Shown: in pieces, positions 15,030 through 64,000 of the stretch
How the letters are laid out: each line of letters begins with the position of its first letter
Numbering within the stretch: the stretch's first letter is position 1
Source: Terracidiphilus sp.
Lineage (GTDB): Bacteria; Acidobacteriota; Terriglobia; Terriglobales; Acidobacteriaceae
Assembly (NCBI GenBank): GCA_050010795.1
Contig: JBEKKI010000008.1
Span: 38,222-102,221, forward strand
Direction: 5' to 3'
Length of the DNA: 64,000 nucleotides
Made by a program: the position numbers and the translations under genes
Notes under the pieces: generated by a model
The model's database searches: none
Told to the model about the DNA's origin: nothing
Seen by the model: only the letters and a program-made list of their open reading frames with translations

Positions 15030-15381
15030 TCCGGGTCGATGGGCCCTATCCTATCTCTCTATCGGCACCCCTCCGCGCCCTGGCACAACTCCGCCCGCGC
15101 GGCGAACCTGACCACTTTATCTAAGACTCTACGGACGCTCGACCGCAGGGTCAACGCTGATAAAAGGTGCCTTTGTGGATAAGGGGGTCGAATCTCTTTA
15201 GCGCCCGCTGATTCGATCGTGCAGCACGATTCCGCCTGCGAAAAACCCGCGCCTGGGCGGAAATTCGCGCTCAAAATTGCGCAACACGCGCGCTCAGGAT
15301 CGTAACATCCAATTGACAGCATTCCATCGCACCGTGAAACTGTCGAAGCAAATTCTCAATCTCGTTTTCGAGGGTTCCTCC

Positions 15382-16857
15382 ATGCAAAAAGCTATCCGAT
15401 CCGCAGCCCTCGTTGCCGCCTTTTCGTACGCTTTCTCGCTCGCGGCGCAGCAGCAACCGTCTCCGCTCGCACCCTTCATCAAAGTCAATGCTCCCGTGCT
15501 CGTGCTAAACCACGTTACTCTCATCGACGGCACTGGGACCACGCCTCGGACCGACATGCGCATCGACATCGCGGGTGGCAAGATCGTCGCCGTCCAACCC
15601 TCCGCTCTGTCCCATGTATATCCGCTCAATGCAAAGGTTCTCGATCTCACCGGCAAGACCGTCATTCCCGGCCTGGTCGGCATGCACGAGCACTTGTTCT
15701 ATCCACTGTCGCAGCGGCCTGAAGGCGGTGCGGCCTTCTACGGTGAAATGCCCGATAGCGCGCCGCGTCTTTACCTGTCCGCCGGTGTCACCACCGCGCG
15801 CACTGGCGGAAGCGTCGAGCCCTACACCGATCTCGAACTGAAAAAGCAGATTGATGCGGGCCTCGTAGCCGGGCCCACGCTCGACGTCACTGGGCCGTAC
15901 CTTGAAGGCAAGGGTACCTTCGCCGTCCAGATGCATCAACTCGCCGACGCCGCCGACGCGGGCCGGATGGTGGACTTTTGGGCCTCAGAAGGCGCCACTT
16001 CCTTCAAGGCCTACAACTACCTCACGGCCGATGAGCTCAAATTGGCCATTCACCACGCCCACTTTCAAAGCCTCAAGATCACCGGCCATCTCTGCTCCAT
16101 CGGATTCACGCAGGCAGCCCAGATGGGCATCGACAATCTCGAGCACGGAATCATCGTTGACACCGAGTTCTACCCCGGCAAACTGCCCGACGCATGTCCC
16201 GACACCCGCGAGGCCGAACAATGGATGGCATCGAGCCTCAACATCGATGGCCCCGAGGTGCAGAACTTGATCCGCGCGCTCGTCGACCATCGCGTTGCCG
16301 TCACTTCCACCCTCGCCGTTCTCGAGACCTTCGTTCCCAATCGCCCGCCCATGCAGGTTGAAGCTGCGCCGCTCAAGACTCTTACCCCAGAAGCCGCCAG
16401 AAGCTTCCTCGCCACGCGCGCCGTCATCGCCGATCCGCCAGGGAATCCGAATCGGCAGCGCGCGGACTACGCCAAATTACTTCAAATGGAAATGCACTTT
16501 GAGCGCAGGTTCGCCGCCGCCGGCGGCATGCTCATGGCCGGCTGCGATCCCACCGGCTACGGCGGCGTCGTTCCCGGCTTCGGCGATCAACGCAATATCG
16601 AATTGCTCGTTGAAGCCGGCTTCACGCCGGTTGAGGCCATACGTATCGCCACGCTCAACGGCGCAATCTACATGGGCAAGGAATCGACCATCGGCTCCAT
16701 CGCGCCGGGCAAGGCCGCCGACCTCGTCGTCCTCGGCGGAAATCCCGATCTGGATATCCGGAACATCGAAAAGGTCGAGACCGTATTCAAGGCTGGCATC
16801 GGTTACGACCCCGCCAGCCTGATTCAGTCCGTGACCGGCCTGGTCGGCCTGCGATAA
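15382..16857 (+). CDS. Exported metal-dependent amidohydrolase
   Basis: Signal peptide MQKAIRSAALVAAF, GKTVIPGLVGMHEH, GSIAPGKAADLVVL. Confidence 0.88.
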   Translation: MQKAIRSAALVAAFSYAFSLAAQQQPSPLAPFIKVNAPVLVLNHVTLIDGTGTTPRTDMRIDIAGGKIVAVQPSALSHVYPLNAKVLDLTGKTVIPGLVGMHEHLFYPLSQRPEGGAAFYGEMPDSAPRLYLSAGVTTARTGGSVEPYTDLELKKQIDAGLVAGPTLDVTGPYLEGKGTFAVQMHQLADAADAGRMVDFWASEGATSFKAYNYLTADELKLAIHHAHFQSLKITGHLCSIGFTQAAQMGIDNLEHGIIVDTEFYPGKLPDACPDTREAEQWMASSLNIDGPEVQNLIRALVDHRVAVTSTLAVLETFVPNRPPMQVEAAPLKTLTPEAARSFLATRAVIADPPGNPNRQRADYAKLLQMEMHFERRFAAAGGMLMAGCDPTGYGGVVPGFGDQRNIELLVEAGFTPVEAIRIATLNGAIYMGKESTIGSIAPGKAADLVVLGGNPDLDIRNIEKVETVFKAGIGYDPASLIQSVTGLVGLR

Positions 16858-19364: not shown

Positions 19365-19461
19365 GTGCCGGGTCCTACGCGACGTAATCCCGCCAACCCC
19401 GCCAGGTCCGGAAGGAAGCAACGGTAACGGGCTCATACGGGCGCAGTAGGTAACCCGGTAC
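19365..19461 (+). ncRNA. ffs: Signal recognition particle RNA (small bacterial 4.5S type)
   Basis: Conserved helix-8 motif CCAGGTCCGGAAGGAAGCAAC, terminal pairing gtgccggg/cccggtac, TAAAAT -10 just upstream, T-tract after. Confidence 0.93.
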
Positions 19462-19545
19462 ATTTTTTACGTTCTTCTTCACCCTTGACGCTTTTGTGTG
19501 GCGAGCCGGCTCCCCACCGGTGTGTGCGCCGCAAGGAGAAATGCA

Positions 19546-20562
19546 TTGAGCCTTACCGTTCGCCCTGTGGTGGGCCGCCGCGCCAAAATTTCGGCGCTCG
19601 GTACGTACGTGCCTCCCGACGTAATCACCAATCAAGACCTCGAAAAAATGGTGGAAACAAGCGACCAGTGGATCACGGAGCGCACCGGGATCAAGACGCG
19701 ACACAAGCTCGCCGCCGGTCTCGGCGTCAGCGACATGTGCACTGAGGCGGCCAAAAAATGTCTCGCCGCGCGCGGCATCGGCCCCGCCGACCTCGAGGTC
19801 ATCATCGTGGGCACAGTTACGCCCGACATGATGTTTCCCTCCACGGCCTGTCTGGTGCAAAACAAGATCGGCGCCACAGGTGCTTGGGGCTTCGACGTCT
19901 CCGGCGGCTGCTCTGGCTTCGTCTATGCGCTCCTCGCCGGCATCAATCTGGTCGAAAGTGGCGCTTATAGCAAGGTTCTGGTGTGCGGCTTCGACGCCAA
20001 CACGCGAATGACCGATTACACCGACCGCACCACCTGCGTCCTCTTCGGCGACGGCGGAGGCGCGGTGCTCATCGAGCCAGCCGCGGAAGGCGAAATCGGC
20101 TACATCGACTCCGTCAACGAGATCGACGGCTCCGGCGGCGTCAGCCTGAACCTGAAGGGCGGGGGCAGCCTCAATCCCTCCACGCACGAAACGGTCGACA
20201 AGAAGTGGCACTACATCTATCAGGACGGGCCCGCCGTCTACAAATTCGCCGTGCGCAAAATGGTAGAGGCCTCCGCCAAGCTTCTTGAGCGGAACGGCGT
20301 CACCGGTAAGGATCTCGGCTGCTTCATTCCCCACCAGGCCAACAAGCGCATCATCACCTCCACCGCTGACCGCCTGGGTCTGGACCCGTGCCGCGTCATC
20401 ATCAACATCGAAAAGTACGGCAACACTTCCGCAGGCACCCTTCCCCTCGCCATGGAGACAGCCATCGAGCAAGGCAAGCTCAAAAAGGGCGATCTGGTCC
20501 TGCTGGCCGCTGTCGGCGCCGGCTTTACGGTGGGCACCGTCCTGCTGCGCTGGGAAATCTGA
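19546..20562 (+). CDS. fabH: Beta-ketoacyl-ACP synthase III
   Basis: [14 protein letters not shown] (Cys), HQANKRI (His), YGNTSAG (Asn). TTG start after aaggag. Confidence 0.95.
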
Positions 20563-52101: not shown

Positions 52102-52200
52102 TCATTTTCGCAAAATCGACCCGGCTGCCATCGCATGGTAAACCCCGCCATCGACCACAGCGATCCCGTTGATCAGCACATGCTCGACGCCCGCCGGATT
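52102..52200 (-). pseudogene. C-terminal 32-codon remnant of an amidohydrolase (D-aminoacylase-like)
   Basis: Not in the ORF track. Translates NPAGVEHVLINGIAVVDGGVYHAMAAGSILRK*, matching the P-GI-HVLVNG-VV-DG---G--LR tail of that family. No start codon and no catalytic barrel. Confidence 0.7.
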
Positions 52201-53170
52201 ACGCAAAATCCAGGGAAGTCCTTCGCCAGGGGGAGACGATGTGGGTACCTCCATTGCCGATTACCGCACTCGCTACGTTCTCCACGGAGGTGATAATGCA
52301 CTCCTCGCCTCGGTTTTCGAGGAAGTCGATTGCCGCCTGGATTTTCGGCCCCATCGACCCCGGTGGGAATTGGCCTGCCGCCAGATACTCGCGCGCCTGG
52401 TCCATGGTGATCGTGTCGAGCCATTTCTGGCTGGGCCGGCCATAGTCGAGCGCTACGCGATCAACTGATGTAACAATGACGAGCTTGTGAGCGCGCACGT
52501 GCGTCGCCAGCATGCTTGATGCCAGGTCCTTGTCGACAACGGCTTCCACACCCACTAAACGATCGTCTTCCCAGGCCACCGGAATCCCCCCGCCTCCGCA
52601 GGCGATCACGACGACGCCGGCGTCGAGCAGCGATGAGATCGCTTCGGCCTCTAGAATTTGCATCGGGAGTGGCGAAGGCACGACGCGACGGTAGCGTCCC
52701 GGAGAGACTTCGCGCATGATCCAGTCTGGCCTGTCGCTGCGGATGCCGGCCAGCTCGCTCGCGTCATAAAAAGACCCGATCGGCTTGCTCGGATGCTGGA
52801 AGTCCGGGTCGTCGCGATCCACGAGCACCTGGGTGATCAGCGTAGCCACTTCGCGCTTGATTCCCTCGCGACGGAACAACTCGCAAACCAGCCGCTGGAT
52901 CATGTAGCCCATGCCGCCCTGGCAATCGGCGTCGCAGGTGTCGAGCGGCAAGCGCGGAACGCGCCGCTCGCCCTCCTCGACGCGAATCAGGATGTTGCCG
53001 ATCTGCGGTCCGCTGCCGTGGGTGATGGCGATTCGTGAACCGGCGTGGAACAGGGGCTTGAGATGCTCGAGCGTCTCCGCAGTGTGGGCAAACTGCAAGG
53101 GAATGGTGCCGGGTTCGCCGGGCCTGGTAATGGCGTTACCGCCCAGGGCGATCACAAGAGTTTCGGTCAT
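52199..53170 (-). CDS. arcC: Carbamate kinase
   Basis: IALGGNAI, THGSGPQIG, QGGMGY, RRVVPSP, CGGGGIPV, EAVVDKDLAS, FPPGSMGPKI. Confidence 0.96.
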   Translation of the reverse strand: MTETLVIALGGNAITRPGEPGTIPLQFAHTAETLEHLKPLFHAGSRIAITHGSGPQIGNILIRVEEGERRVPRLPLDTCDADCQGGMGYMIQRLVCELFRREGIKREVATLITQVLVDRDDPDFQHPSKPIGSFYDASELAGIRSDRPDWIMREVSPGRYRRVVPSPLPMQILEAEAISSLLDAGVVVIACGGGGIPVAWEDDRLVGVEAVVDKDLASSMLATHVRAHKLVIVTSVDRVALDYGRPSQKWLDTITMDQAREYLAAGQFPPGSMGPKIQAAIDFLENRGEECIITSVENVASAVIGNGGTHIVSPWRRTSLDFA

Positions 53171-53174
53171 GGTC

Positions 53175-54203
53175 TTAAGATCCTGTCATCTCGTAAACAA
53201 CTTCTTGGTCCGACATCGTCAGTGCCATGATCGCCTTGGCGGTATGCAGGCGGTTTTCCGCTTCCTGGTACACCACAGATTGCGGGCCATCGATGACATC
53301 GTCCGTCACCTCGTTGCCCCGATCGGCGGGCAGCGGATGCATGTACAGAGCATTCTCCGCAGCCAATTTCATGCGCTCGTTGTTGCAAATCCAGTGCCGG
53401 TATCCCTCGGCGATCCGCAGGGACTCCTTGGGGTTCGTTCCCATGGTGTCGAGACAGCCCCAGCTCTTGGGAATCACGATGTCAGCGCCGCGAAACGCGT
53501 CGTCCATGTTGTCCACGATCTCGAACTTGGTTCCGGCGCGCCGCGCGTTCTCTCGCGCCGCCTCCACCGTCTCCGGCATCAGCGCGTACTCGGGTGGATG
53601 CGCCAGCACCACGTCCAGTCCAAAGCGCGGCATCAACATGATCAGTCCTTGCGGCACGCTGAGCGGCTTGGCGTAGCTCGGCGCATACGCCCACGATACC
53701 GCCAGCTTGCGTCCGCTCAGGTTCCGTCCGAGTTTCTCGCGGATTGTCATCAGGTCGGCCAGCGTCTGGCAGGGATGGTCGATGTCGCCCTGCATATTGA
53801 TCACCGGCACATCCGCCCAGCGCGCAACTTCGCGCATGTACGCGTTGCCCTCGCCCGGAATCAGGTCGTGACGGATGGCGATCGCGTGCCCGTAGCTGGA
53901 GAGAATGATTCCTGTGTCCTTCGCGCTTTCGCCATGCGAGACCTGCATGACATCGGTGGTCAAAAAATGGGCGTGGCCGCCAAGCTGCGTGATTCCCGCC
54001 TCAAACGAGTTGCGCGTGCGCGTGGATTTGTCGAAGAACATCAGAAAGATGGTCTGATCGGGCAAATAACGATGCGGAACGCGCCCTTTGAACTTGCGCT
54101 TCAAATCGGCGGATACGTCGAGCAGGATTTCGATCTCTGCTTCGCTGTATTCTTCCGTAGTGATGTAGTCCTTGCCCTTAAAGAGCGCCTTTCTCGTTTC
54201 CAA
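53175..54203 (-). CDS. ygeW: YgeW-like knotted carbamoyltransferase
   Basis: KSTRTR, HPCQTLAD, MHPLPADRG, and the YgeW-type loop SWAYAPSYAKPLSVPQG. Confidence 0.82.
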   Translation of the reverse strand: METRKALFKGKDYITTEEYSEAEIEILLDVSADLKRKFKGRVPHRYLPDQTIFLMFFDKSTRTRNSFEAGITQLGGHAHFLTTDVMQVSHGESAKDTGIILSSYGHAIAIRHDLIPGEGNAYMREVARWADVPVINMQGDIDHPCQTLADLMTIREKLGRNLSGRKLAVSWAYAPSYAKPLSVPQGLIMLMPRFGLDVVLAHPPEYALMPETVEAARENARRAGTKFEIVDNMDDAFRGADIVIPKSWGCLDTMGTNPKESLRIAEGYRHWICNNERMKLAAENALYMHPLPADRGNEVTDDVIDGPQSVVYQEAENRLHTAKAIMALTMSDQEVVYEMTGS

Positions 54204-54236
54204 CGCACACCTCTTCCTCGATAGCCTTCATTCCGT

Positions 54237-55463
54237 TCAGCCATTCTCGCCTTCGAGCGTCGTGACGTACGCCAGGGGGAAGGCAGCATAGAACTGCGCC
54301 GCTTCCACCAGGTGGCGGATCGGGACGCGTTCGATGACACTATGCGCGACGTCTTCTTCACCGGGACCGAAGCCGATGGTCGGCACGCCCATCATTCCCA
54401 TCGAGCCGACGCCGTTGGTGCTGAAGGTCCACTTGTCCACAACTGGATCGGCGTTGTGGAGCGTTCGATACGCCGCCACGGCCGAGCGCACGAGCAAATG
54501 GTCTTCTTCGAGCACCCACGTTGGATAGTACTTCTGCATCGGATACGTGAGTCCGGTATAGCTGGGCGTCTCGTACTGCAACACCTCGATCTCCGCGCCT
54601 TGCGCCGCCGGCAGGGCTTTCACCTCGGCGACCGCGCTCTCGAGCGTCTCCCCGGCGGTCAGCCGGCGGTCAAGATGGATGGAGCATGCGCCCGGCACCG
54701 CGCACAGGGAAGGAGACATCGAGCGAATCTCGGTGACGGCGATTGTTCCCTTGCCGAGAAACGCATCGTCGCGCAAACGCGTGTTCAACTCCTCGATCTG
54801 CGCGATCATCGGGACTATCTTGTAAATCGGATTGTCGCCGCGCTCCGGCGCGCTGGCATGACACGAACGTCCGCGTATGTGAACCTCGATCTCCATGCGT
54901 CCGCGGTGTCCGCGGTACACGCGCAGATTGGTTGGCTCCGTGAGCACTACGCAGTCCGGCCGGATACCGTCCTCCTTGAGAATGTAGACCCACGCCAGGC
55001 CGTCGCAGTCTTCTTCCTGCACCGATCCCACGATCCACAAAGTGTAGTCGCCTTCCAGTTCCAAATCCTTGATCATCTTGCCCGCGTAAACCATGCTGGC
55101 CATGCCGGCGCGTTGATCGCTGGCGCCGCGTCCGTAGATGAAACCGTCCTCCACTTTGCCCTTGTACGGGTCCCAGGCCCATTCCTTCGGATCGCCAACG
55201 CCGACGGTGTCGGTGTGCGCGTCCATCATGATCACGTGTTTGCCTGAGCCGATGCGTCCCAGCACGTTGCCTATGGCATCAATGCGGATTTCGTCGAAGC
55301 CCACGCATTCCATCTCCTGCTTGATGCGCTGAACCACGGGACCTTCGTGGGAACTTTCGCCGGGAATGGCGACTAGGTCGCGCAGAAAGCGGACCATGTC
55401 CGCTTCCAGCGCGTTTGCGGCGGCGAGTAAACGGGCGGAGTCAATCGTAGTTTTATCAGGCAT
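54237..55463 (-). CDS. ygeY: YgeY-family M20 hydrolase
   Basis: MDAHTDTVG, GRGASDQRAG, VQEEDCDG, RGHRGRMEI, KWTFSTNG, GFGPGEE. Confidence 0.92.
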   Translation of the reverse strand: MPDKTTIDSARLLAAANALEADMVRFLRDLVAIPGESSHEGPVVQRIKQEMECVGFDEIRIDAIGNVLGRIGSGKHVIMMDAHTDTVGVGDPKEWAWDPYKGKVEDGFIYGRGASDQRAGMASMVYAGKMIKDLELEGDYTLWIVGSVQEEDCDGLAWVYILKEDGIRPDCVVLTEPTNLRVYRGHRGRMEIEVHIRGRSCHASAPERGDNPIYKIVPMIAQIEELNTRLRDDAFLGKGTIAVTEIRSMSPSLCAVPGACSIHLDRRLTAGETLESAVAEVKALPAAQGAEIEVLQYETPSYTGLTYPMQKYYPTWVLEEDHLLVRSAVAAYRTLHNADPVVDKWTFSTNGVGSMGMMGVPTIGFGPGEEDVAHSVIERVPIRHLVEAAQFYAAFPLAYVTTLEGENG

Positions 55464-55492
55464 GTTGATGACCTGCTGTTCGCGTTCTTGAT

Positions 55493-58078
55493 TCAGCACG
55501 GTTGTAATGCTCCTTTCTTGTTGCGACTGCGGCTGTAAGGCGTGTCGGCGAGCGGCAGGCTCGTGCGCAGCTTTCCGTCCCGCTGCCAATACGCGCACGC
55601 AATGGCCGGCGCCGTCGGAATGCTCACAATTTCGCCGATGCCCTTGGCGCCGTACGCCAACTCGGCCCGGTTCTTCTCGATAATCCGGCACTCGATCTCC
55701 GGCGTCTCGGTCGAGCGCAGAAGGCCGATCGTTCCGAACTTGACTGCAGGTGCGCCATTCTTTACAGCGAACTCTTCGGTCAGCGCATAGCCCATCCCCA
55801 TCACCACGCCGCCTTCGATCTGCCCCTCCACGCCATTCGGATTGATGGCCCGCCCTACGTCGTGCGCTGCCACCACCTTCATCACTTTGCCTGCCTCGTC
55901 AAGCAGCACCACCTGCGTCGCGTATCCGTACGATACGTGGCTCATGCGGTGCGGCTTGTCGCTCGTCATCGGGTCGGTCACGCAGTCGTACTCGCCGTGG
56001 AACTCTTGGCCCTCCAATTCCGCCAGCGCGTGACGGTTCAACTGCCGCCTAAGCTCGAGCGCCGCCCTTCGCGCCGCCTCGCCCGTAATCGTTGTCTGCC
56101 GCGAAGCAGTGCTGGTGCCGCTGTCCGGCGTCACGCTGGTGTCAGGCGCATGCACCGTGAGCATTGACTTGTCGACGCCCGCCGTTTCCGAGACAATCTG
56201 CAGCACCACCGTCGCGATCCCTTGACCCATGCACGCCGCGCTGGTCGAGATCGTCACCCGTCCGCCCTCCACTTTCAGCTTCACGCGGCCTACGTCCTTC
56301 ACCCCCACGCCCTTGCCTGTGTTCTTGAACGCGCACGCAATCCCCGCGTCGGGATGCGCATCGATCACGTCCTTCACGGCGAGCAGTGTCTCCTTCAGCG
56401 CCGTCCCCTCATCGGCGATCTGCCCGTTTGAAAGCACGCCGCCCGCCTCGATCGCGTTGCGGTAACGAATCTCCCACGGCGAAATTCCTGCCGCGTGCGC
56501 CAGCAGATTCAGGTTGCTCTCCATCGCGAAACACGTCTGTGTCACGCCGAACCCGCGCATCGCGCCCGACGGAATGTTGTTGGTGTAGATCGCCCGTCCC
56601 TCGATGTCGACATTCTCGATCCGGTACGGTCCAGCCGCGTGCGTGCACGCCCGCTGCAGCACCGGCCCGCCCAGCGACGCATACGCTCCCGTATCTGCCA
56701 CAATCCGCACCCGCGCCGCGGTCAGCTTGCCGTTCTCATCGCACGCCGTCGTGCATTCAATCTCCATCGGGTGCCGCTTGGGATGCACGCGCAGGCTCTC
56801 ATCGCGGCTCAGGGTCAGCTTCACGGGCCGTCCGCTCTTCCAGGCCAGCAGCGCCGCGTGATGCTGAACCGACATGTCTTCCTTCCCGCCAAACCCTCCG
56901 CCAACGAACTTGCTAACGACCCTCACCTTCTCGCCTTCCACTCCCAGCGTCCGCACAATCTCGCGATGATCGTCGTACACGCTTTGTCCCGCGGTATACA
57001 CCGTCAGCGATCCGGGCGCTCCCGGCACGGCCAGCGCACTCTCCGGCTCCAGAAACGCATGCTCCTGCCGCGGCGTGGAATAGCGCTGCGTCACCACATG
57101 CCTGGCCGCAGCAATCGCCCGCTCCGCATCGCCCCGCTTCAACACCGTCGTCGCCAGCACATTTCCTTCGAGATGCAGCTGCGGCGCTCCCTCAGCTAAT
57201 GCCGCCTGCGGTGAAAGCAGCGGCTCGCGCTCTTCGTATTCCACGCGGACAAGCTCGATCGCCTTCCTCGCCGCCTCCTTCGTTGTTGCCGCCACCAGGG
57301 CGAGCGCATCGCCCACGTATCGCGTCTCTTCTCCTTCGGCAATCATCACCGGCCAGTCGTAGACCACGTGCCCCAGCATTCGCTCGCCCGGCACGTCGCG
57401 CGCCGTCAGCACAATTTCAACGCCGGGCAGCGCCCGCGCCGCCGCCGCATCGATCCGCTTCACCAGCGCCCGCGGAAACCTCGCCCGCAGCACGGCGCCA
57501 TGCAACATGCCCTCCACGTGCATGTCATCGACAAATTCGCCCGTCCCCAGCAGCTTCTCTTTTGCTTCCGCACGCACCGTGCGCTCGCCCACGCGCGCTC
57601 CCGCCGCCTCCACGTCATGCACCCTGCCGTTGGCCAGAGCCCCCGCAGCCAGTTGAATCGCCCGCTCCACCTTCGCGTATCCCGTGCAGCGGCACAGGTT
57701 GTAGCGGATCGCCGACTTCACCTCCGCCGCTGTCGGCGCGGGATTCGCGTCCAGCAAAGCCTTCGCGCTCATCACCATGCCCGGCATGCAGAATCCGCAC
57801 TGCACCGCGCCCACTTCGCCGAAGGCCCACGCATACACCTCGCGCTCCCGCGGCGAAAGCCCCTCCACCGTCATCACCGATTTCCCGTGTACCCTGGCCA
57901 CAGTGAGCGTGCACGCGCGTGCCGCCTTGCCGTTCACGATCACGGAGCACGACCCGCACACTCCGTCGCCGCATCCGTTTTTGACTGAAGTCAGGCGCGC
58001 GTCCTCGCGCAGGTATTCGATCAGACTCTTGTCCGTCTCTGCCGCGGCCTCCCGCTGGTTTAGCGTGAAGCGGAACAT
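55493..58078 (-). CDS. Single-chain molybdenum hydroxylase (2Fe-2S plus Mo domains), selenium-dependent xanthine dehydrogenase type
   Basis: CGDGVCGSC, VQCGFC, CRCTGY, QEHAFLEPE, GGGFGGKED, AMRGFG, GAKGIGE. No FAD domain. Confidence 0.9.
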   Translation of the reverse strand: MFRFTLNQREAAAETDKSLIEYLREDARLTSVKNGCGDGVCGSCSVIVNGKAARACTLTVARVHGKSVMTVEGLSPREREVYAWAFGEVGAVQCGFCMPGMVMSAKALLDANPAPTAAEVKSAIRYNLCRCTGYAKVERAIQLAAGALANGRVHDVEAAGARVGERTVRAEAKEKLLGTGEFVDDMHVEGMLHGAVLRARFPRALVKRIDAAAARALPGVEIVLTARDVPGERMLGHVVYDWPVMIAEGEETRYVGDALALVAATTKEAARKAIELVRVEYEEREPLLSPQAALAEGAPQLHLEGNVLATTVLKRGDAERAIAAARHVVTQRYSTPRQEHAFLEPESALAVPGAPGSLTVYTAGQSVYDDHREIVRTLGVEGEKVRVVSKFVGGGFGGKEDMSVQHHAALLAWKSGRPVKLTLSRDESLRVHPKRHPMEIECTTACDENGKLTAARVRIVADTGAYASLGGPVLQRACTHAAGPYRIENVDIEGRAIYTNNIPSGAMRGFGVTQTCFAMESNLNLLAHAAGISPWEIRYRNAIEAGGVLSNGQIADEGTALKETLLAVKDVIDAHPDAGIACAFKNTGKGVGVKDVGRVKLKVEGGRVTISTSAACMGQGIATVVLQIVSETAGVDKSMLTVHAPDTSVTPDSGTSTASRQTTITGEAARRAALELRRQLNRHALAELEGQEFHGEYDCVTDPMTSDKPHRMSHVSYGYATQVVLLDEAGKVMKVVAAHDVGRAINPNGVEGQIEGGVVMGMGYALTEEFAVKNGAPAVKFGTIGLLRSTETPEIECRIIEKNRAELAYGAKGIGEIVSIPTAPAIACAYWQRDGKLRTSLPLADTPYSRSRNKKGALQPC

Positions 58079-59466
58079 TTTGCATGCTCCTCTTGAACGG
58101 CCGGCCGGTGTGCGCAAATCTTCTCGTTATACTCGCGCACCTTGGCGTATTGCGCGTCCCAAAAGCTCTGGCTGCGCATCGAGTCGAGAAACTCCTTCGT
58201 GTAACCGAACTTCAGCCAATCGTTTTCCTTTTGCTTGAAGAGCCGCTCTTTCGTCTCCGCCTTGCGAAAGTCAAAGACCTCGTCGCTTGACGCGTCGAGA
58301 AAGATGTCGCTCGCCCAACGGTCCAGCACCGTTGGTGTCAGCTCCAGGTAGCGGCCCTCCAGGTCGCGCAGCACGGAGTGGTAACGGTCAAACCCATCCG
58401 TTGCCACCGTCACCACGTTGTCCCCTGGGCCCAGCCGCAGATATTTCGCCAGCTTGATCGCGCCCAGCACGTTGCACACGCCCGACGGCCCGAACAGTTC
58501 CCGCAGTCCCAGCGCAAACTCCCGTTCCACGCCCATCCGCACCATGGTCTCCAGTCCGTCGTGGAAGATCTTCACGCCCTGCACCGTCTCTTCGTCCCTG
58601 ATCAGAATCACGAAGTCGGTATTGAGCACGTTGTGAATCAGCGTGCACATCTTGTCGCCGATGCCCTCGATGCGATGCTGCCCGCGGCCTCCGGTCGCCA
58701 GCGTGGAGCACTCATACGGCTCCAGTGCGGCCACCTTCGCCTCTGGAAACATCGCCTTGATCTGATCGCCCGCTGCAATCGTCCCCGCCGAGCCCGGCGC
58801 CGAGACAAAACCCGCGATCCGCCCGTTGCCCACGCCCTTTACCGCATCAGCTGCGCTCCCGCCCGTGACGTGCCGGTGAAACCGGTAGTTCGGGAACAGC
58901 TCGAATTGCGCCAGCGCCTTGTTTTTGGGGTTCTTCATCAGCTCGCGCGTTTTTTCGAGCGTCAGGATCACGTCCGACTCCGTGCCCGGCGTCAGCTCCA
59001 GTTCTCCTCCGTACTTCCTGATGCGCTCGTAACGCTCCTTGCTCATGTTGTCCGGCATGATCACGATCGCGCGGAAGCCCAGCAGCTTCGAGATGTACGC
59101 GGTCCCAATGCCGAAATTGCCCGTCGACGGCCCCAGTATCGTGTGCTCGCCCGGCACGATCTCTCCATCCACCAGCGCTTCCATCAGCGTCGAGTACGCC
59201 GCGCCTACCTTGTGCGAACCGGAAGGAAATCGGTTCCCGAGCATCACCACCACGTTCGCGGCCACGCCCGTCAGCGCCGAGGGCAGCACCACCTTCCGCA
59301 TCTCGTTGGCCGCATCGCGCCAGTTGATGTTGAACAGATTGATCGGATCGAGCTCGTCCTTGTCGAGCGCCTCAAGCGCCCTTGCGCGCACGCTCTTATC
59401 GATCAATCCCGGGTTGAGCATCTCGTCGTAACTGGGACCCATCGGAACTTTCGCCATCGTTCTCAC
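58060..59466 (-). CDS. Fold-type-II PLP enzyme (cysteine-synthase-like) of unknown function
   Basis: PSGSHKVG (PLP Lys), STGNFG, PGSAGT phosphate loop, HRIEGIG. C-terminal extension of roughly 90 aa. Confidence 0.82.
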   Translation of the reverse strand: MRTMAKVPMGPSYDEMLNPGLIDKSVRARALEALDKDELDPINLFNINWRDAANEMRKVVLPSALTGVAANVVVMLGNRFPSGSHKVGAAYSTLMEALVDGEIVPGEHTILGPSTGNFGIGTAYISKLLGFRAIVIMPDNMSKERYERIRKYGGELELTPGTESDVILTLEKTRELMKNPKNKALAQFELFPNYRFHRHVTGGSAADAVKGVGNGRIAGFVSAPGSAGTIAAGDQIKAMFPEAKVAALEPYECSTLATGGRGQHRIEGIGDKMCTLIHNVLNTDFVILIRDEETVQGVKIFHDGLETMVRMGVEREFALGLRELFGPSGVCNVLGAIKLAKYLRLGPGDNVVTVATDGFDRYHSVLRDLEGRYLELTPTVLDRWASDIFLDASSDEVFDFRKAETKERLFKQKENDWLKFGYTKEFLDSMRSQSFWDAQYAKVREYNEKICAHRPAVQEEHAKCSASR

Positions 59467-59547
59467 TTTCCCTTCCTTCTATCCGACCTAAATCCTTAAA
59501 TCGCAGTGGGTGCCACAGGTCTCGATTTTGAGACCTGGGTTATAAAG

Positions 59548-60804
59548 TCAACTCGCCGCTGCCGCAGCCACCGCTTCCCGAACCTCATCCATCTCCGGCC
59601 GCACCGCAATCGGGCGGCCCACGGCGCGCATCGCGCTTTGCACGTCCTTCAATCCATTCCCCGTCATCACCAGAACCGCGCTCTCGCTGTGGCCTATCAC
59701 GCCCGACGCGACGGCCCGCCGCACGCCCGCCGCACAAGCCACACCCGCGGGTTCGCCAAACACGCCCGTTCTTCGTGCCACGAGCGTCATCGCTTCAAGA
59801 ATCTCTGCGTCCGATACCGCGATGAACGCGCCGCCCGACTCGTTGACGGCGCGCATGCCTTTGGCAAAGTTCCGCGGATGCCCCACGGCGATCGAATCGG
59901 CAAGCGTGTTCCCCTCACATGGCGTGAGCGCGCTTCGATCGCGCCACGCCGTAACAAACGGCTGGCAGCCCTCGGCCTGCACTCCCAGAACACGCGGCAG
60001 GCGCTCCAGAATCCCCAATCGGCACATTTCCCTCAGCCCCGACCACACGCCGCCGATCGTGCATCCATCGCCCACCGATACCACCACCCAATCGGGAAAT
60101 CTGCCGTCCCCGATCCGCGAAAACTGCTCCGCCATCTCCAGCGAAACTGTCTTCTTGCCCTCGATCAGGTATGGGTTCACGGCGCAGTTGCGGTTGTACC
60201 AGCCGAACTCCGCGCTGGCATTCATGCACAGTTCCCATGCCTCGTCGTATGTGCCCTGCACCTGGAAAACTCGCGCTCCGTACACCAGCAGTTGCGCCAC
60301 CTTGGCCTCCGGCGCGCGTGCCGGAACAAAAATCGTCGCCGCAATCCCCGCTGCCGCCGCCATGCCTGCCAACGACGACGCTGCGTTGCCTGTCGACGCG
60401 CACGTCACCTGCGCCGCCTTCCGCTCCAGCGCCTTCACCACGCCCAGCGCGCTCGCGCGATCCTTGAACGACGCCGTCGGGTTCCGTCCCTCATCCTTCA
60501 CCCAGCACCGCGCCACTCCCAATTCGCTCGCCAGCCGCGGCGCATCGTAGAGCGGTGTCCAACCCACCTGCAGGTGCGGAATCAACTCCGGCGACGCCAC
60601 GGGCAGCAGCGGCAGATAGCGCCACATCGAAAGCTCGCTATTTCCCTTGAGCGTGTCCGCATTCAGCTCCCGCCGCACCGCTTCGTAGTCGTACTCCACA
60701 TCCAGAATGCCCTCGTGATATCCGCAGGCAGGGCAGTAGTATTCCGCCTCCAGTGTCGAGTACGTTCGCCCGCAATGAATGCATCTGAGTCCCGTAACGT
60801 GCAT
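59548..60804 (-). CDS. Threonine-synthase-like PLP enzyme with N-terminal Zn ribbon
   Basis: CIHC/CPAC, VGWTPL, NPTASFKDR, ASTGNAASS, SVGDG, EPAG, TGNGLKD. Confidence 0.85.
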   Translation of the reverse strand: MHVTGLRCIHCGRTYSTLEAEYYCPACGYHEGILDVEYDYEAVRRELNADTLKGNSELSMWRYLPLLPVASPELIPHLQVGWTPLYDAPRLASELGVARCWVKDEGRNPTASFKDRASALGVVKALERKAAQVTCASTGNAASSLAGMAAAAGIAATIFVPARAPEAKVAQLLVYGARVFQVQGTYDEAWELCMNASAEFGWYNRNCAVNPYLIEGKKTVSLEMAEQFSRIGDGRFPDWVVVSVGDGCTIGGVWSGLREMCRLGILERLPRVLGVQAEGCQPFVTAWRDRSALTPCEGNTLADSIAVGHPRNFAKGMRAVNESGGAFIAVSDAEILEAMTLVARRTGVFGEPAGVACAAGVRRAVASGVIGHSESAVLVMTGNGLKDVQSAMRAVGRPIAVRPEMDEVREAVAAAAAS

Positions 60805-60850
60805 CGGTCTCTCTCCGTATCTACGGCGCGCCTCCGGCTCGGGAGCCCGC

Positions 60851-61945
60851 TTACCGAGGCATCGTGATCGCCCGCAGCTTGCAGCGCGTAATGCACAGCC
60901 CGCACTTCGCGCACTTCTCCTCGTCGATTTCCACGATCCTCGCGTTCTTGTCCATGCGAATCGCGCCATACCCGCAGCTCTTCTCGCAGATCCCGCAAAG
61001 AGCGCAGTGCTCCATATTCACTTTCGGCGCGGTCTCCATGTGTGGTGCGCCGCATTGCCGCATCATGCGCACCGTGAGCCCGCTGATCTCGTCCACTGAC
61101 TTGTAATCATGCTCGTCGAGAAACTCATTCAGCTCGCGAGCGATCCTCCCGTACACCGTCGGCCCGCGCAGAATCGCCTCCGTGCACACCTCGACGGCCA
61201 GCGCGCCTGCCATCAGCATCTCCGCCGCGTCGCGCCCGTTGCTGATGCCGCCCACGCCGACAATCGGAATCTTCACCGCCCGCGCCGCGTCGTACACGCA
61301 GCGCAGTGCCAGCGGCTTGATCGCAGTGCCCGACAGCCACCCGAACCCGTCCTTGCTCCCCATCAGCGGCAGCCCGGTTTCGATGTCGATGCTCAGGCAC
61401 GGCCCGAATGAGTTGATCATCACCAGCGCATCCGCGCCCGCATCCTCCAGCGCCAGCGCCAGCTCCTGGATGTTCGGGTGCGGGCTCAGCTTCATGAACA
61501 CCGGCACATCCACCGCTTCCTTGGCCGCGCGCAGCGCATCGATGATCGGCCCGATATTCGTTCCCACATAGTGCGTCGAAAGCTCCAGCGCATCGGCAAA
61601 CGGCTTCACCATGGGCGCCAGCTCCCGGATCTGCCTGGCCGTGTACCCCAGGCCCACAATCACCGGCAGGCCCGTCGCCCGCGCCAGCTTGTACTCGGAT
61701 TCGATCCACTGTTCTTTGGGTAGCTCTGACCACAGTTCGGCGTTCAAGAATCCGCCGCGAATCTCCGCCATGCATGGCTGCGGCACCTCGGCCGGGGCGG
61801 CGGAAATGGTTTTGGTCACGAGCCCGCCGGCGCCGCCGCTCGCAGCCGCCTCGAGCGCTGCGCCGTCTTTCGAAGGCGGTCCTGCCGCAGGCAGAATCGG
61901 ATTCCTGAATTCCAGACCGCAGATATTGACGCGTAGATTTGCCAT
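60851..61945 (-). CDS. PreA/DHODH-like FMN TIM-barrel protein with C-terminal 2x[4Fe-4S]
   Basis: FRNPILPAAGP, VTKTI, MKLSP, LSGTAIKPLALR, GVGGIS, CALCGICEKSC and CAKCGLCITRC. Confidence 0.88.
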   Translation of the reverse strand: MANLRVNICGLEFRNPILPAAGPPSKDGAALEAAASGGAGGLVTKTISAAPAEVPQPCMAEIRGGFLNAELWSELPKEQWIESEYKLARATGLPVIVGLGYTARQIRELAPMVKPFADALELSTHYVGTNIGPIIDALRAAKEAVDVPVFMKLSPHPNIQELALALEDAGADALVMINSFGPCLSIDIETGLPLMGSKDGFGWLSGTAIKPLALRCVYDAARAVKIPIVGVGGISNGRDAAEMLMAGALAVEVCTEAILRGPTVYGRIARELNEFLDEHDYKSVDEISGLTVRMMRQCGAPHMETAPKVNMEHCALCGICEKSCGYGAIRMDKNARIVEIDEEKCAKCGLCITRCKLRAITMPR

Positions 61946-62105
61946 CGCGCTTTCCGTTCAACTGAGGTTCCGAACGCCGTGGATGGCCCGGCGTCCCGCC
62001 ATCGAAGTTGACCCGTGCCCAGGGTGAGGGCAGTCCGCGGCGTCGAGAGGCCCCTTGCGCCGCGGAAGTGTAGAACTATTGTCTTGCACTTTGCCTTCGC
62101 GCCAA

Positions 62106-62147
62106 TGTGATTTGAATCACGACACTTAGCGGCAGCCTTGCTAGAAT
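62106..62147 (+). promoter_or_regulatory. CRP/FNR-like palindrome plus extended -10 of the ssnA promoter
   Basis: TGTGA-tttgaa-TCACG at 62106-62121; TGcTAGAAT at 62139-62147; ATG at 62155. Confidence 0.62.
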
Positions 62148-62154
62148 CCCCAGC

Positions 62155-63498
62155 ATGGCGGAGTCTGCCAATTTGCTGGTCGGCAACGGCCGCGTCATCA
62201 CCCACGACGACGGCCAGCCCTTCCTCGAGAACGGCTGCATTGCCATCCAGGACGGCCTCATCGCCGCCGTCGGCCCCACCGCCGAAATCGTGCCCGCCAA
62301 TCCCGACGCGCGTTTTCTCGATGCGCAGGGCCGCATCATCATGCCCGGCCTTATCAATGCTCATACGCATCTCTACAGCGCCTTCGCCCGCGGCATGGCG
62401 CTCAAGGATGATGCCCCCGGTAATTTCATGCAGATTCTCGAGCGCCTCTGGTGGCGGCTCGACAAAGCTCTCACCCTCGACGACGTCTACTGGAGCGCCA
62501 TGGCCGGCATGGTCGAGTGCATCCGCAACGGCGTCACCACCGTCTTCGACCACCACTCCAGCCCCCACGCCGTTCGCGTCAGCCTTTTCCGCATCGCCGA
62601 GGCCGCGCGGCAAACCGGCCTCCGCGCCTGTCTCTGCTATGAAGTCTCCGACCGCGACGGCGCAGAGATTGCCACGCAGGGCATCGAGGAGAATCGCGCA
62701 TTCCTCGAGACCTGCATCCGCCGGCCTGAAAGCCTCATCCGCGGCCTCTTCGGCCTGCACGCCTCGTTCACTCTGGGCGACGCGACTCTTGCCCAATGCC
62801 GCGAGGCTGCCGCCGATCTCGGCGCCGGATTCCACGTGCACACCGCGGAAGCTCTTTCAGACGTCGACCATTGCCTCCGCGAGCACAACATAGGAGTAGT
62901 CGAGCGCTGGCGCCAGCGCGGCATCCTCGGCCCGCACACGCTCGCTGCGCATTGTGTCCACGTCAGTGAGCGCGAAATCGATCTCCTGCGCGAGTCAAAA
63001 ACCGCGGTCGTGCACAACCCGCAATCCAACATGGCCAACGCGGTTGGCTGCGCGCCGGTCCTCGAAATGATGCGCCGCGGCACCCGCGTCGGCCTCGGCA
63101 CTGACGGCTACACCGCGGACATGTTCGAGTCTATGAAGGCTGCCTCGCTTCTCCAGAAGCATCACTCCGGCGATCCGCGCGCCGCATGGTCCGAGCCGCC
63201 GCTCATGCTCTTCCGCGAAAACTCGGGCCTAGCGTCGGAACATTTCGGCCAGCCCGTCGGCACGCTCACGCCCGGCGCTGCCGCCGACATCATCCTCGTC
63301 GACTACGACCCGCCCACGCCGATCGACGCCGCCAACCTTTCCGGCCACATCTTTTTTGGCCTGACGGGCCGCGCCGTCTCCACCACCATCGTCGGCGGCC
63401 GCATCCTGATGCACAACCGCAAACTCCTCACCATCGACGAAAGCGAAGTGATGGCCCACGCCCGCGCCGCCGCCGCCGAAGTCTGGAAGCGGTTCTAG
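62155..63498 (+). CDS. ssnA: Amidohydrolase SsnA
   Basis: MPGLINAHTHLYSAFARG, LWWRLDKAL, DHHSS, LCYEVSDRDG, FGLHASFTL, GFHVHTAE, HNPQSNMANAVG, GTDG. Confidence 0.93.
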   Translation: MAESANLLVGNGRVITHDDGQPFLENGCIAIQDGLIAAVGPTAEIVPANPDARFLDAQGRIIMPGLINAHTHLYSAFARGMALKDDAPGNFMQILERLWWRLDKALTLDDVYWSAMAGMVECIRNGVTTVFDHHSSPHAVRVSLFRIAEAARQTGLRACLCYEVSDRDGAEIATQGIEENRAFLETCIRRPESLIRGLFGLHASFTLGDATLAQCREAAADLGAGFHVHTAEALSDVDHCLREHNIGVVERWRQRGILGPHTLAAHCVHVSEREIDLLRESKTAVVHNPQSNMANAVGCAPVLEMMRRGTRVGLGTDGYTADMFESMKAASLLQKHHSGDPRAAWSEPPLMLFRENSGLASEHFGQPVGTLTPGAAADIILVDYDPPTPIDAANLSGHIFFGLTGRAVSTTIVGGRILMHNRKLLTIDESEVMAHARAAAAEVWKRF

Positions 63499-63533: not shown

Positions 63534-64000
63534 TGTCATCCTGAGCGAGTCGCATGGGTGACGAGCCGAAGGACCTGCATTTGCTTTTCGTTCTTGTTCT
63601 TGCGGCTAGGGTGGGAGTCTGTCCACTGACCCCCTGACCCCTGATCTCTGATCTCTGATCTCTGATCTCTGTACACCTGTCATCCCGAGCGCAGCGGTTT
63701 GGGGCCCCGGATTCGCAACGCGAATATGGGGCAAGCGGAGCCGAAGGACCTGCTTTTGCTTTTCGCTCTTGTTCTTGCGGCTAGGGTGGGAATCTGTCCC
63801 CTGACCCCTGACCTCTGAACTCTGTACACCTGTCATCCCGAGCGTAGCGGTTTGGGGCCCCGGACTCGCAACGCGAATATGGGGCAAGCGGAGCCGAGGG
63901 ACCTGCATTTGCTTTTCGTTCTTGTTCTTGCGGCTAGGGTGGGAATCTGTCTACTGACCCCTGACCCCTGATATCTGATCTCTGTACACCTGTCATCCCG
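63534..64000. repeat. Tandem array of composite 144-160 bp units, continuing past the window end
   Basis: Units start with tgtcatcc at 63534, 63678, 63831 and 63991. Shared blocks: gagccgaaggacctgc, ttgcttttcg(t/c)tcttgttcttgcggctagggtggga, ctgacccctg and (ctgatct)n. Confidence 0.92.

Follow-up and report, generated by a model that had tools for sequence, protein, structure and literature searches.

A putative mosaic reductive urate cluster in a peat acidobacterium, with a pair of PLP enzymes in the place of YgeX

The reductive (2,8-dioxopurine) pathway of urate degradation was solved by two 2025 studies (Li et al., Life Metab, PMC12507026; Liu et al.) and is the closest described counterpart of the locus considered here, a cluster of eight genes at positions 52199-63498 of a 64,000-nucleotide stretch of DNA (the window, meaning the whole stretch that was analysed) from a Terracidiphilus sp. 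assembly (GCA_050010795.1, contig JBEKKI010000008.1). According to these studies, urate is converted to 2,8-dioxopurine by XdhD-YgfM or by a clostridial single-chain XdhAC, the product is dearomatised by YgfK, SsnA then opens the pyrimidine ring to give ureidomethyl-hydantoin, and HyuA converts this to 2,3-diureidopropionate. One ureido group is removed through phosphorolysis by YgeW, after which carbamate kinase makes ATP, and the other through hydrolysis by YgeY. The resulting 2,3-diaminopropionate (DAP) is split by YgeX into pyruvate and ammonia. The function of the single-chain selenium-type (Se-type) Xdh, XdhAC, comes from the work of Liu et al. on C. sporogenes. An R/D configuration is proposed for the pathway intermediates, YgeX, unusually, takes both D- and L-diaminopropionate, and the 2025 studies flagged the stereochemistry as open.

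A variant of the pathway has been described from C. difficile, in which UacX, an assayed isoxanthine reductase, stands in for YgfK, and the hydrolase UacY stands in for YgeW and YqeA, while the remainder, including ygeX and hyuA, is kept (PMC12507026). UacX is a PF01180 protein with flavin mononucleotide (FMN) and Fe-S centers but no flavin adenine dinucleotide (FAD) domain, like the ferredoxin-dependent PydAc, and the HyuA enzymes of E. coli and C. difficile open 5-ureido-dihydrouracil as well as ureidomethyl-hydantoin (PMC12507026). Li et al. used the SsnA family (IPR017700 / TIGR03314) as a marker of the pathway and counted any PF00291 neighbor as "YgeX" (PMC12507026). So far the pathway has been described as belonging chiefly to Bacillota and Enterobacteria that live with hosts, and no paper on it in Acidobacteria was found in the literature searched, which is not proof of absence.

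An earlier note on this DNA, made from the sequence alone, had described a minus-strand run of seven genes with a divergent ssnA in an apparent Acidobacterium and proposed a variant of the anaerobic urate pathway outside gut anaerobes. Open reading frame listing and translation confirmed the operon, with all eight genes intact in the order and on the strands described. Spacing within the operon is tight, the extremes being a 19-bp overlap and a 90-bp gap, and eight public contigs with an identical ssnA product have the same gene calls. The attribution to an Acidobacterium also holds: the closest relatives of every cluster gene are in Acidobacteriaceae/Terracidiphilus metagenome-assembled genomes (Terracidiphilus is now Occallatibacter), and the cluster DNA occurs in peat and wetland metagenomes. 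Family scores and related acidobacterial loci support the proposal of a pathway variant outside gut anaerobes. Like the published gut-bacterial pathway (PMC12507026), the window encodes SsnA, YgeY, a YgeW-type carbamoyltransferase with carbamate kinase, and a molybdenum (Mo) hydroxylase, the last being a single-chain Xdh with Fe-S and molybdenum cofactor (MoCo) domains as in C. sporogenes XdhAC. However, the published hosts are gut Bacillota or an Enterobacterium, whereas the host here is a peat Acidobacterium, and the window has a UacX-type reductase instead of YgfK and a pair of pyridoxal 5'-phosphate (PLP) enzymes instead of YgeX, and lacks YgfM, HyuA, yqeB, yqeC, mocA, a permease and a sigma-54 regulator. 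With the C. difficile variant it shares a PF01180 FMN/Fe-S reductase without an FAD domain beside ssnA, and an Xdh without an FAD subunit. C. difficile keeps YgeX and HyuA, whereas the window has neither, and in place of UacY it carries the carbamoyltransferase/kinase module.

The earlier note had placed ygfK, hyuA and ygeX outside the window, and tblastn agrees. The queries were proteins of E. coli K-12 and a HyuA-like protein of Sporomusa. No match to hyuA, ygfK, ygfM, yqeB, yqeC, mocA, xanQ or uacT was found at E<=1e-3 in the window and the 10 kb beyond ssnA, and the E. coli YgeX query had a single, weak match there, to one of the two PLP enzymes. No selD, permease or cluster regulator, including the sigma-54 type, was found within the window. 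The cluster joins redox enzymes of clostridial type to an energy-conserving tail of E. coli type, has no hydantoinase of its own and carries a PLP module for YgeX. On the sequence evidence, we think it fairly probable that the locus encodes a mosaic reductive urate pathway in which the PLP pair replaces YgeX and the tail is an acquired cassette.

The PLP pair is the new part of the locus and is apparently undescribed. Neither 2025 pathway paper mentions these genes, and no paper linking CysK- or ThrC-like genes to ssnA/ygeY/ygeW clusters was found in the literature searched, which again is not proof of absence. The pair comprises a ThrC-like enzyme, hereafter P-Thr (59548-60804, minus strand, 418 aa; PALP, 247 bits), and a CysK-like enzyme, hereafter P-Cys (58060-59457, minus strand, 465 aa; PALP, 89 bits). 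With DpaL/YgeX (TIGR03528, NF006058) they share a fold-type II PLP architecture, the same cluster position and the same proposed reaction, but DpaL/YgeX is one protein, whereas the window has two, from the ThrC and CysK branches of the fold. Both would count as YgeX under the Pfam-level criterion of Li et al. (any PF00291). No window protein reaches the cutoffs of the DpaL/YgeX models NF006058, TIGR03528 or TIGR01747: on NF006058 (cutoff 276) P-Thr scores 62 bits and P-Cys 26 bits. P-Thr is the best, though weak, window match of E. coli YgeX (25-26% identity, E 6e-7).

Both proteins resemble the biosynthetic enzymes of their branches, ThrC (e.g., Thermus 1UIM and Aquifex 2ZSJ) and CysK, in fold, in the motif around the PLP lysine (SFKDR and SHK, respectively) and in the Asn loop (STGN). 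They differ from them in sitting in catabolic purine clusters, P-Thr further by its zinc ribbon and site changes and P-Cys by its terminal extensions. P-Thr has a ThrC fold with an N-terminal Cys4 zinc ribbon, and at the positions of Thermus S155, R160, N188 and N191 it carries Ala, Leu, Asp and Thr. Its family reads N-A...L and G-D-G-C-T where all five solved ThrCs read N-S...R and G-N-A-G-N, and across 70 members of the family the conservation of the Leu and of the GDGCT loop with its Asp is 98% or higher. P-Thr does not, then, retain the full set of residues that are invariant in solved threonine synthases near the O-phosphohomoserine phosphate site (Thermus N154, S155, R160, N188). Omi et al. 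reportedly identified three of these, S155, R160 and N188, in 2003 as ligands of the substrate phosphate. With Leu in the place of the Arg and Asp in the place of the Asn, the site would be suited to a substrate that bears a distal ammonium group, diaminopropionate being one example.

P-Cys has a CysK fold with two conserved extensions, of about 50 aa at the N terminus and about 100 aa at the C terminus, and keeps the Schiff-base Lys (SGSHK), the Asn loop (STGNFG) and the Gly loop. It falls far under the cysteine-synthase cutoffs (TIGR01139, 138 bits against 351; TIGR01136, 139 bits against 344). The family is highly uniform: among 83 sequences from Acidobacteriota, Negativicutes, Moorella, Syntrophaceticus, Symbiobacterium and Izemoplasmatales, 191 of the 465 positions are at least 98% identical, and the best 120 database matches of P-Cys, Sporomusa among them, are all at least 79% identical. 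An AlphaFold2 model from a 71-sequence alignment (predicted local distance difference test [pLDDT] of 72) superposes on O-acetylserine sulfhydrylases over the core only, with a template modeling (TM) score of about 0.7, and Foldseek with this model returned only generic O-acetylserine sulfhydrylases, with the terminal extensions unmatched; this confirms the fold but gives no more specific clue to function. A model built from 16 close homologues was discarded (pLDDT of 45.6).

The gene context of the pair bears most directly on its role. The P-Cys family occupies at least 557 loci (one genome per species, GTDB species representatives), of which the 80 closest were surveyed by tblastn, the queries being proteins of the window and of E. 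coli along with HyuA and UacY from Sporomusa; 51 of these have at least 8 kb on each side and form a well-flanked set. In this set P-Thr accompanies P-Cys in 49/51 loci and at least one purine-cluster marker is present in 45/51, with a YgeY-family protein in 40, a Mo hydroxylase in 38, YgeW or a related carbamoyltransferase in 34 and SsnA in 31. E. coli-type YgeX had no match at E<=1e-10 across 83 loci. The earlier note had made its proposal hang on co-occurrence of the PLP and PreA-like genes with ssnA, ygeY and ygeW in other genomes, and such co-occurrence was seen. The pair lies inside urate clusters of Acidobacteriota, Negativicutes, Moorella and other Bacillota. Some Bacillota clusters are very like that of E. 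coli (YgeW, YgeY and YqeA 66%, 70% and 50% identical to the E. coli proteins) and have the order ygeW-P-Cys-yqeA-P-Thr-ygeY, together with hyuA, ssnA and ygfK; E. coli has ygeW-ygeX-ygeY where these clusters hold the PLP pair, and neither PLP gene is present in its own 40-kb cluster region. Negativicutes contain four-gene modules (P-Thr-UacY-M20-P-Cys) without any Mo enzyme. This pattern indicates that the two genes form a functional pair, acting downstream of the ureido-cleaving enzymes in the place of YgeX.

From these comparisons, the pair, which recurs across many phyla, most likely does the job of YgeX and of that enzyme only. A stereochemical division of labor, as a racemase and a lyase or as D- and L-specific enzymes, is a reasonable hypothesis. 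Alternatively, the PLP enzymes could act earlier or differently, releasing urea or carbamate directly from albizziin or 3-amino-2-ureidopropionate by beta-elimination, or turning the C3N2 skeleton into serine or cysteine, and not pyruvate, by beta-replacement; either would be a novel PLP chemistry. CysK-fold enzymes do carry out beta-replacements with ureido compounds and DAP precursors, and O-ureido-L-serine synthase (3x43) and SbnA were among the matches; elimination of DAP does not call for two enzymes, pairs that stand alone have amino-acid ATP-binding cassette (ABC) transporters as neighbors, and an Fe-S serine dehydratase adjoins one acidobacterial cluster. However, a YgeY-family hydrolase and a YgeW- or UacY-type enzyme accompany the pair in most clusters, so that both ureido groups are provided for and DAP is the expected product, and the only canonical function that is systematically missing is ygeX. 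We therefore regard a different chemistry as unlikely.

A role outside catabolism, in the supply of cysteine, selenocysteine or threonine or as a sulfur or selenium donor in maturation of the Se-Mo hydroxylase, with ygeX elsewhere in the genome, appears less probable again, and we would give it only a small chance. CysK-type enzymes can use selenide, P-Thr scores above thrC hidden Markov model cutoffs, and in Moorella-type loci the pair adjoins yqeC, mocA and yqeB, all of which would fit such a role. Yet 13/51 well-flanked loci have no Mo hydroxylase nearby, several of them being pure modules of deacylase and PLP genes, P-Thr is without residues that are conserved in all solved ThrCs, and P-Cys lies far under every cysteine-synthase cutoff. 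Nor does the pair replace yqeB/yqeC, since it coexists with them in 7/51 well-flanked loci.

Several observations weigh against replacement of YgeX by the pair, or against the mosaic pathway of which it would be part. P-Thr passes the threonine-synthase cutoffs TIGR00260 (208 bits; cutoff, 167) and, narrowly, NF006050 (304 bits; cutoff, 303). A single enzyme, YgeX, suffices in E. coli, against the two here. Stand-alone P-Thr/P-Cys pairs without purine genes occur at L042 (from Lucifera butyrica), L044, L046, L061 and L077; the Lucifera pair adjoins a sigma-54 activator, DAO/Pyr_redox FAD oxidases, an aldehyde dehydrogenase and a branched-chain-type ABC transporter, and such unrelated neighbors mean that the substrate may be broader than DAP, or other than DAP, and suggest that the pair also acts on some other amino-acid-like compound. 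The census covers the 80 closest of at least 557 loci, and more distant family members might coexist with ygeX. Canonical ygeX, hyuA or ygfK may lie beyond the window and the 10 kb past ssnA. The likeness of the reductase to C. difficile UacX (Q181U4) is one of domain architecture and position. Finally, the sole expression support from RNA runs is one metatranscriptome contig of 154 nt, 100% identical and inside P-Cys.

The oxidoreductase half of the cluster and SsnA are more familiar. SsnA (62155-63498, plus strand, 447 aa), an amidohydrolase-family protein 36% identical to its E. coli namesake, scores 621 bits on NF005540 (cutoff, 444) and 599 bits on TIGR03314 (cutoff, 455.5). A probable promoter (62107-62147, plus strand) was found upstream by promoter scan, with a palindrome, GTGATttgaATCAC, at 62107-62120 and a -10-like TAGAAT at 62142-62147, 8 nt before the ATG (62155). 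Across 31 intergenic regions of Acidobacteria, the GTGAT-N4-ATCAC palindrome and an ATTCTAG box show a conservation of 80% or more, and the center of the palindrome is about 40 nt upstream of the likely transcription start. The CRP/FNR-type palindrome and the -10 box probably make up the ssnA promoter, and the short distance from the -10 box to the ATG suggests a near-leaderless transcript. The Xdh (55493-58078, minus strand, 861 aa) has fused 2Fe-2S and MoCo domains, scores 1341 bits on TIGR03311, the model of the selenium-dependent XDH family (cutoff, 830), and only 210 bits on the XdhD-type TIGR03313, and had no FAD subunit near it in tblastn with E. coli queries. It is presumed to be the reductase of urate to 2,8-dioxopurine, of the DOPDH/XdhAC type.

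The PreA-like protein (60851-61945, minus strand, 364 aa) combines a PF01180 (DHO_dh) domain with two [4Fe-4S] centers (Fer4) and lies under the PreA and PyrD model cutoffs (NF006183, 179 bits against 335). No PreT/GltD-like partner with FAD and NAD(P)H sites was found in the window with ygfT as query, and the protein shares only 26-28% identity with the true PreA found in Pyd operons of Acidobacteria. Genes of this type are adjacent to or divergent from ssnA in 39/80 loci, and the window gene fits the operational definition of UacX (PF01180 beside ssnA; PMC12507026), the likeness being one of architecture and position alone. It is presumed to be a UacX-type, ferredoxin-dependent 2,8-dioxopurine reductase replacing YgfK. 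A parallel exists with the reductive pyrimidine (Pyd) pathway (PMC7332683), in that UacX shares the ferredoxin-dependent PydAc architecture and SsnA has a PydB-like role; unlike that pathway, the window contains no Pyd operon, and its reductase is distant from acidobacterial PreA. The earlier note had taken the PreA-like replacement as uncharacterised, and on this point it needs correction: replacement of YgfK by the UacX type is real but already published for C. difficile (PMC12507026).

The same note had suggested that the cluster might act on a different heterocycle. That hyuA, ygeX, a urate permease and a conventional XDH are not in the window, and that UacX belongs to the pyrimidine-reductase superfamily, would be consistent with this idea. 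It finds no support, however: equivalog cutoffs are exceeded by a wide margin in SsnA, in the Se-type Xdh and in YgeY, and the sister acidobacterial clusters (core proteins 63-87% identical) contain an in-cluster D-hydantoinase along with a UacT-like permease and XdhABC-like genes. A substrate other than urate is accordingly very improbable.

The step for which the window offers no candidate is opening of the hydantoin. The HyuA type (IPR011778 / TIGR02033) is not represented, since neither E. coli HyuA nor the Sporomusa HyuA-like protein has a match in the window and the 10 kb beyond ssnA, and the three enzymes left unassigned by the earlier note do not include an amidohydrolase, which means that the cluster itself holds no substitute for HyuA. 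The proposal that these three enzymes fill the missing roles thus stands for YgfK (the UacX type) and for ygeX (the PLP pair) but fails for HyuA. The one further amidohydrolase of the window, of 526 aa (15277-16857), was rejected as hydantoinase for its Xaa-Pro-dipeptidase-like character, as were three Pfam-less genes downstream of ssnA, which are unconserved in sister loci.

Comparison of Acidobacteriaceae clusters revealed four architectures: (a) the window type, hydantoinase-less within 10 kb and followed by a resistance-nodulation-division (RND) operon, in about 17 species; (b) clusters with a D-hydantoinase between P-Cys and Xdh and a tail of a second YgeY-family M20 protein and UacY, an arrangement found likewise in Sporomusa; (c) type (b) minus the in-cluster hydantoinase; and (d) a backbone like that of type (c) with the ygeY-carbamoyltransferase-kinase tail of the window. 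UacY and an in-cluster D-hydantoinase, both features of the C. difficile variant, thus recur in sister acidobacterial and Sporomusa clusters. In types (c) and (d), a complete reductive pyrimidine operon (PreT, PreA, PydB, PydC and a class III aminotransferase, often with mocA and yqeB upstream) lies convergent at the 3' end of the cluster, forming a purine and pyrimidine catabolic super-cluster (L091, L096, L100, L102, L105 and L109; L020, L025 and L027). The acidobacterial PydB scores 506 bits on TIGR02033 (cutoff, 393), and Pyd operons are common in soil Acidobacteria. Since HyuA of E. coli and C. difficile opens both substrates, a Pyd dihydropyrimidinase supplied in trans would be the simplest reading for types (a), (c) and (d). 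In a metagenome scan with acidobacterial PydB, the contig of the window was not among the best 80 of 422 relatives, a result that neither shows nor excludes a copy.

The lack of a hydantoinase could instead mean that the cluster is incomplete and decaying, its hydantoinase lost and its tail replaced by an efflux operon. There is no hyuA within 52 kb on one side or 10 kb on the other, and an insertion of a 153-bp tandem repeat and three orphan genes sits next to ssnA. Decay is nevertheless hard to reconcile with eight intact open reading frames and the recent spread of the cassette described below, or with the keeping of the hyuA-less architecture in about 17 acidobacterial species, in which amino acid identities well above synonymous-site identity indicate purifying selection. 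We see very little likelihood of it.

The ureido-cleaving tail of the cluster has a history of its own. It consists of YgeY, an M20 ureido-hydrolase (54237-55499, minus strand, 420 aa; 58% identical to E. coli YgeY; TIGR03526, 581 bits; cutoff, 321), a carbamoyltransferase (53175-54203, minus strand, 342 aa; OTCace_N and OTCace domains) and carbamate kinase (arcC; 52199-53170, minus strand, 323 aa; NF009007, 330 bits, cutoff of 266; TIGR00746, 351 bits, cutoff of 358), so that the complete ureido-cleaving set is present. The label "ygeW-like" given to the carbamoyltransferase in the earlier note is apt insofar as the protein is 40% identical to E. coli YgeW (342 against 396 aa), but it stays under the YgeW cutoffs (TIGR03316, 233 bits against 500; NF005538, 250 against 453), and also under those of the OTC, AOTC and PTC models. 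Carbamoyltransferases of the same subfamily (47-55% identity) are found alongside YgeY and YqeA in clusters of Moorella, Izemoplasmatales and other Bacillota. With YgeY and carbamate kinase as companions, the setting matches that of YgeW, and the enzyme is presumed to phosphorolyse a ureido group to carbamoyl phosphate.

At the amino acid level, SsnA, UacX, P-Thr, P-Cys and Xdh are 63-87% identical to their counterparts in sister species, in contrast to 87-96% for YgeY, the carbamoyltransferase and the kinase. The same split is seen at third positions of conserved four-fold codons, with 29-67% identity in those five genes and 70-90% in the other three. In DNA, the block of three is 92-98% identical to sister species, and its flanks are 70-84% identical. 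In sliding-window comparison with L011, L013 and L025, DNA identity rises from 64-86% to 90-99% at about 55,400-55,600, the Xdh/ygeY junction, and drops at the arcC stop (52,199). The step is sharp at both ends and persists in the comparison with L025, even though that locus has a UacY-type backbone. It delimits a ygeY-carbamoyltransferase-kinase cassette of 3.3 kb (52199-55500, minus strand) and shows that this cassette spread among peat Acidobacteriaceae far later than the rest of the cluster diverged. At the cassette position, sister clusters hold the second YgeY-family M20 protein and UacY, and from these comparisons the ATP-conserving cassette appears to have been recently acquired, replacing a hydrolytic M20 and UacY tail. 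The M20 protein that travels with UacY (e.g., L020 13978-15171) is only 32-37% identical to window YgeY yet passes the YgeY-family cutoff of NF009555 (493 bits against 321), so that there are two YgeY subfamilies, each bound to one tail type. A 31-aa stretch just after arcC (52105-52197, minus strand) matches the C-terminal residues 498-528 of Sporomusa UacY (55% identity, E 6.7e-5, tblastn) and may be the scar of a replaced UacY module; it is one short, weak match, and no such remnant was detected in sister loci.

Taken together, we propose the following route through the cluster. By homology, the single-chain Se-type Xdh would convert urate to 2,8-dioxopurine, the UacX-type reductase would dearomatise it, probably with reduced ferredoxin, and SsnA would open the pyrimidine ring to give ureidomethyl-hydantoin. 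A dihydropyrimidinase encoded elsewhere, most plausibly PydB of a Pyd operon, could then open the hydantoin to 2,3-diureidopropionate. Again by homology, the YgeW-like enzyme would turn one ureido group into carbamoyl phosphate, from which carbamate kinase would make ATP, and YgeY would hydrolyse the other to leave DAP. P-Thr and P-Cys, on comparative genomic grounds, would replace YgeX in releasing pyruvate and ammonia from DAP; we speculate that one of them handles the D/L stereochemistry, or one isomer, and that the other carries out the alpha,beta-elimination. Much more tentatively, the pair could represent a widespread, undescribed two-enzyme PLP system for the end of anaerobic purine breakdown. 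Such a system might treat the D-configured intermediates otherwise than YgeX does, as a racemase with a lyase or as D- and L-specific lyases, or might carry out a new beta-elimination or beta-replacement on diaminopropionate or ureido-alanines, and the hyuA-less architecture could work without a dedicated hydantoinase.

If this route holds, the supposedly universal YgeX step would have a two-gene alternative in at least several hundred species, one that Pfam-level genome-neighborhood surveys would silently score as "YgeX". The pair would also provide an experimental handle on the stereochemistry of diaminopropionate-type intermediates. The hydrolytic (UacY) and ATP-conserving tails appear to be swapped as cassettes between species today, and the pathway is common among Acidobacteriaceae of peat and wetlands, which suggests that anaerobic breakdown of purines and urate supplies nitrogen and energy in waterlogged soils.

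The 97 nt past the arcC stop (from 52102) contain no gene, and an MdtABC-type RND efflux operon follows downstream of arcC. The rest of the window is housekeeping (KatG, SMC, PurC, RecQ, cyclophilins, an ECF sigma factor and others). On the other side, downstream of ssnA, lies the 153-bp tandem repeat (4.8 copies, 93% matches; window 63641-64000 onward, L001 11487-12246), and its copy number varies between assemblies, since the ENA version of this contig lacks about 313 bp in the region. The three Pfam-less genes (444, 405 and 203 aa) follow the repeat; their absence from sister loci marks them as an insertion and not as pathway genes. Rfam at gathering thresholds found no riboswitch near the cluster, and its only hit was a bacterial small signal recognition particle RNA (RF00169, 71 bits) at 19366-19463 on the plus strand. 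A 365-aa open reading frame without a Pfam match (19375-20472) lies on the opposite strand, its 3' end overlapping this RNA gene. Among the related loci, L024 (DATLJC010000078.1), binned as "Candidatus Saccharimonadales", has an acidobacterial-type cluster with a P-Cys 82% identical to that of the window, and its taxonomic assignment is probably a binning error.

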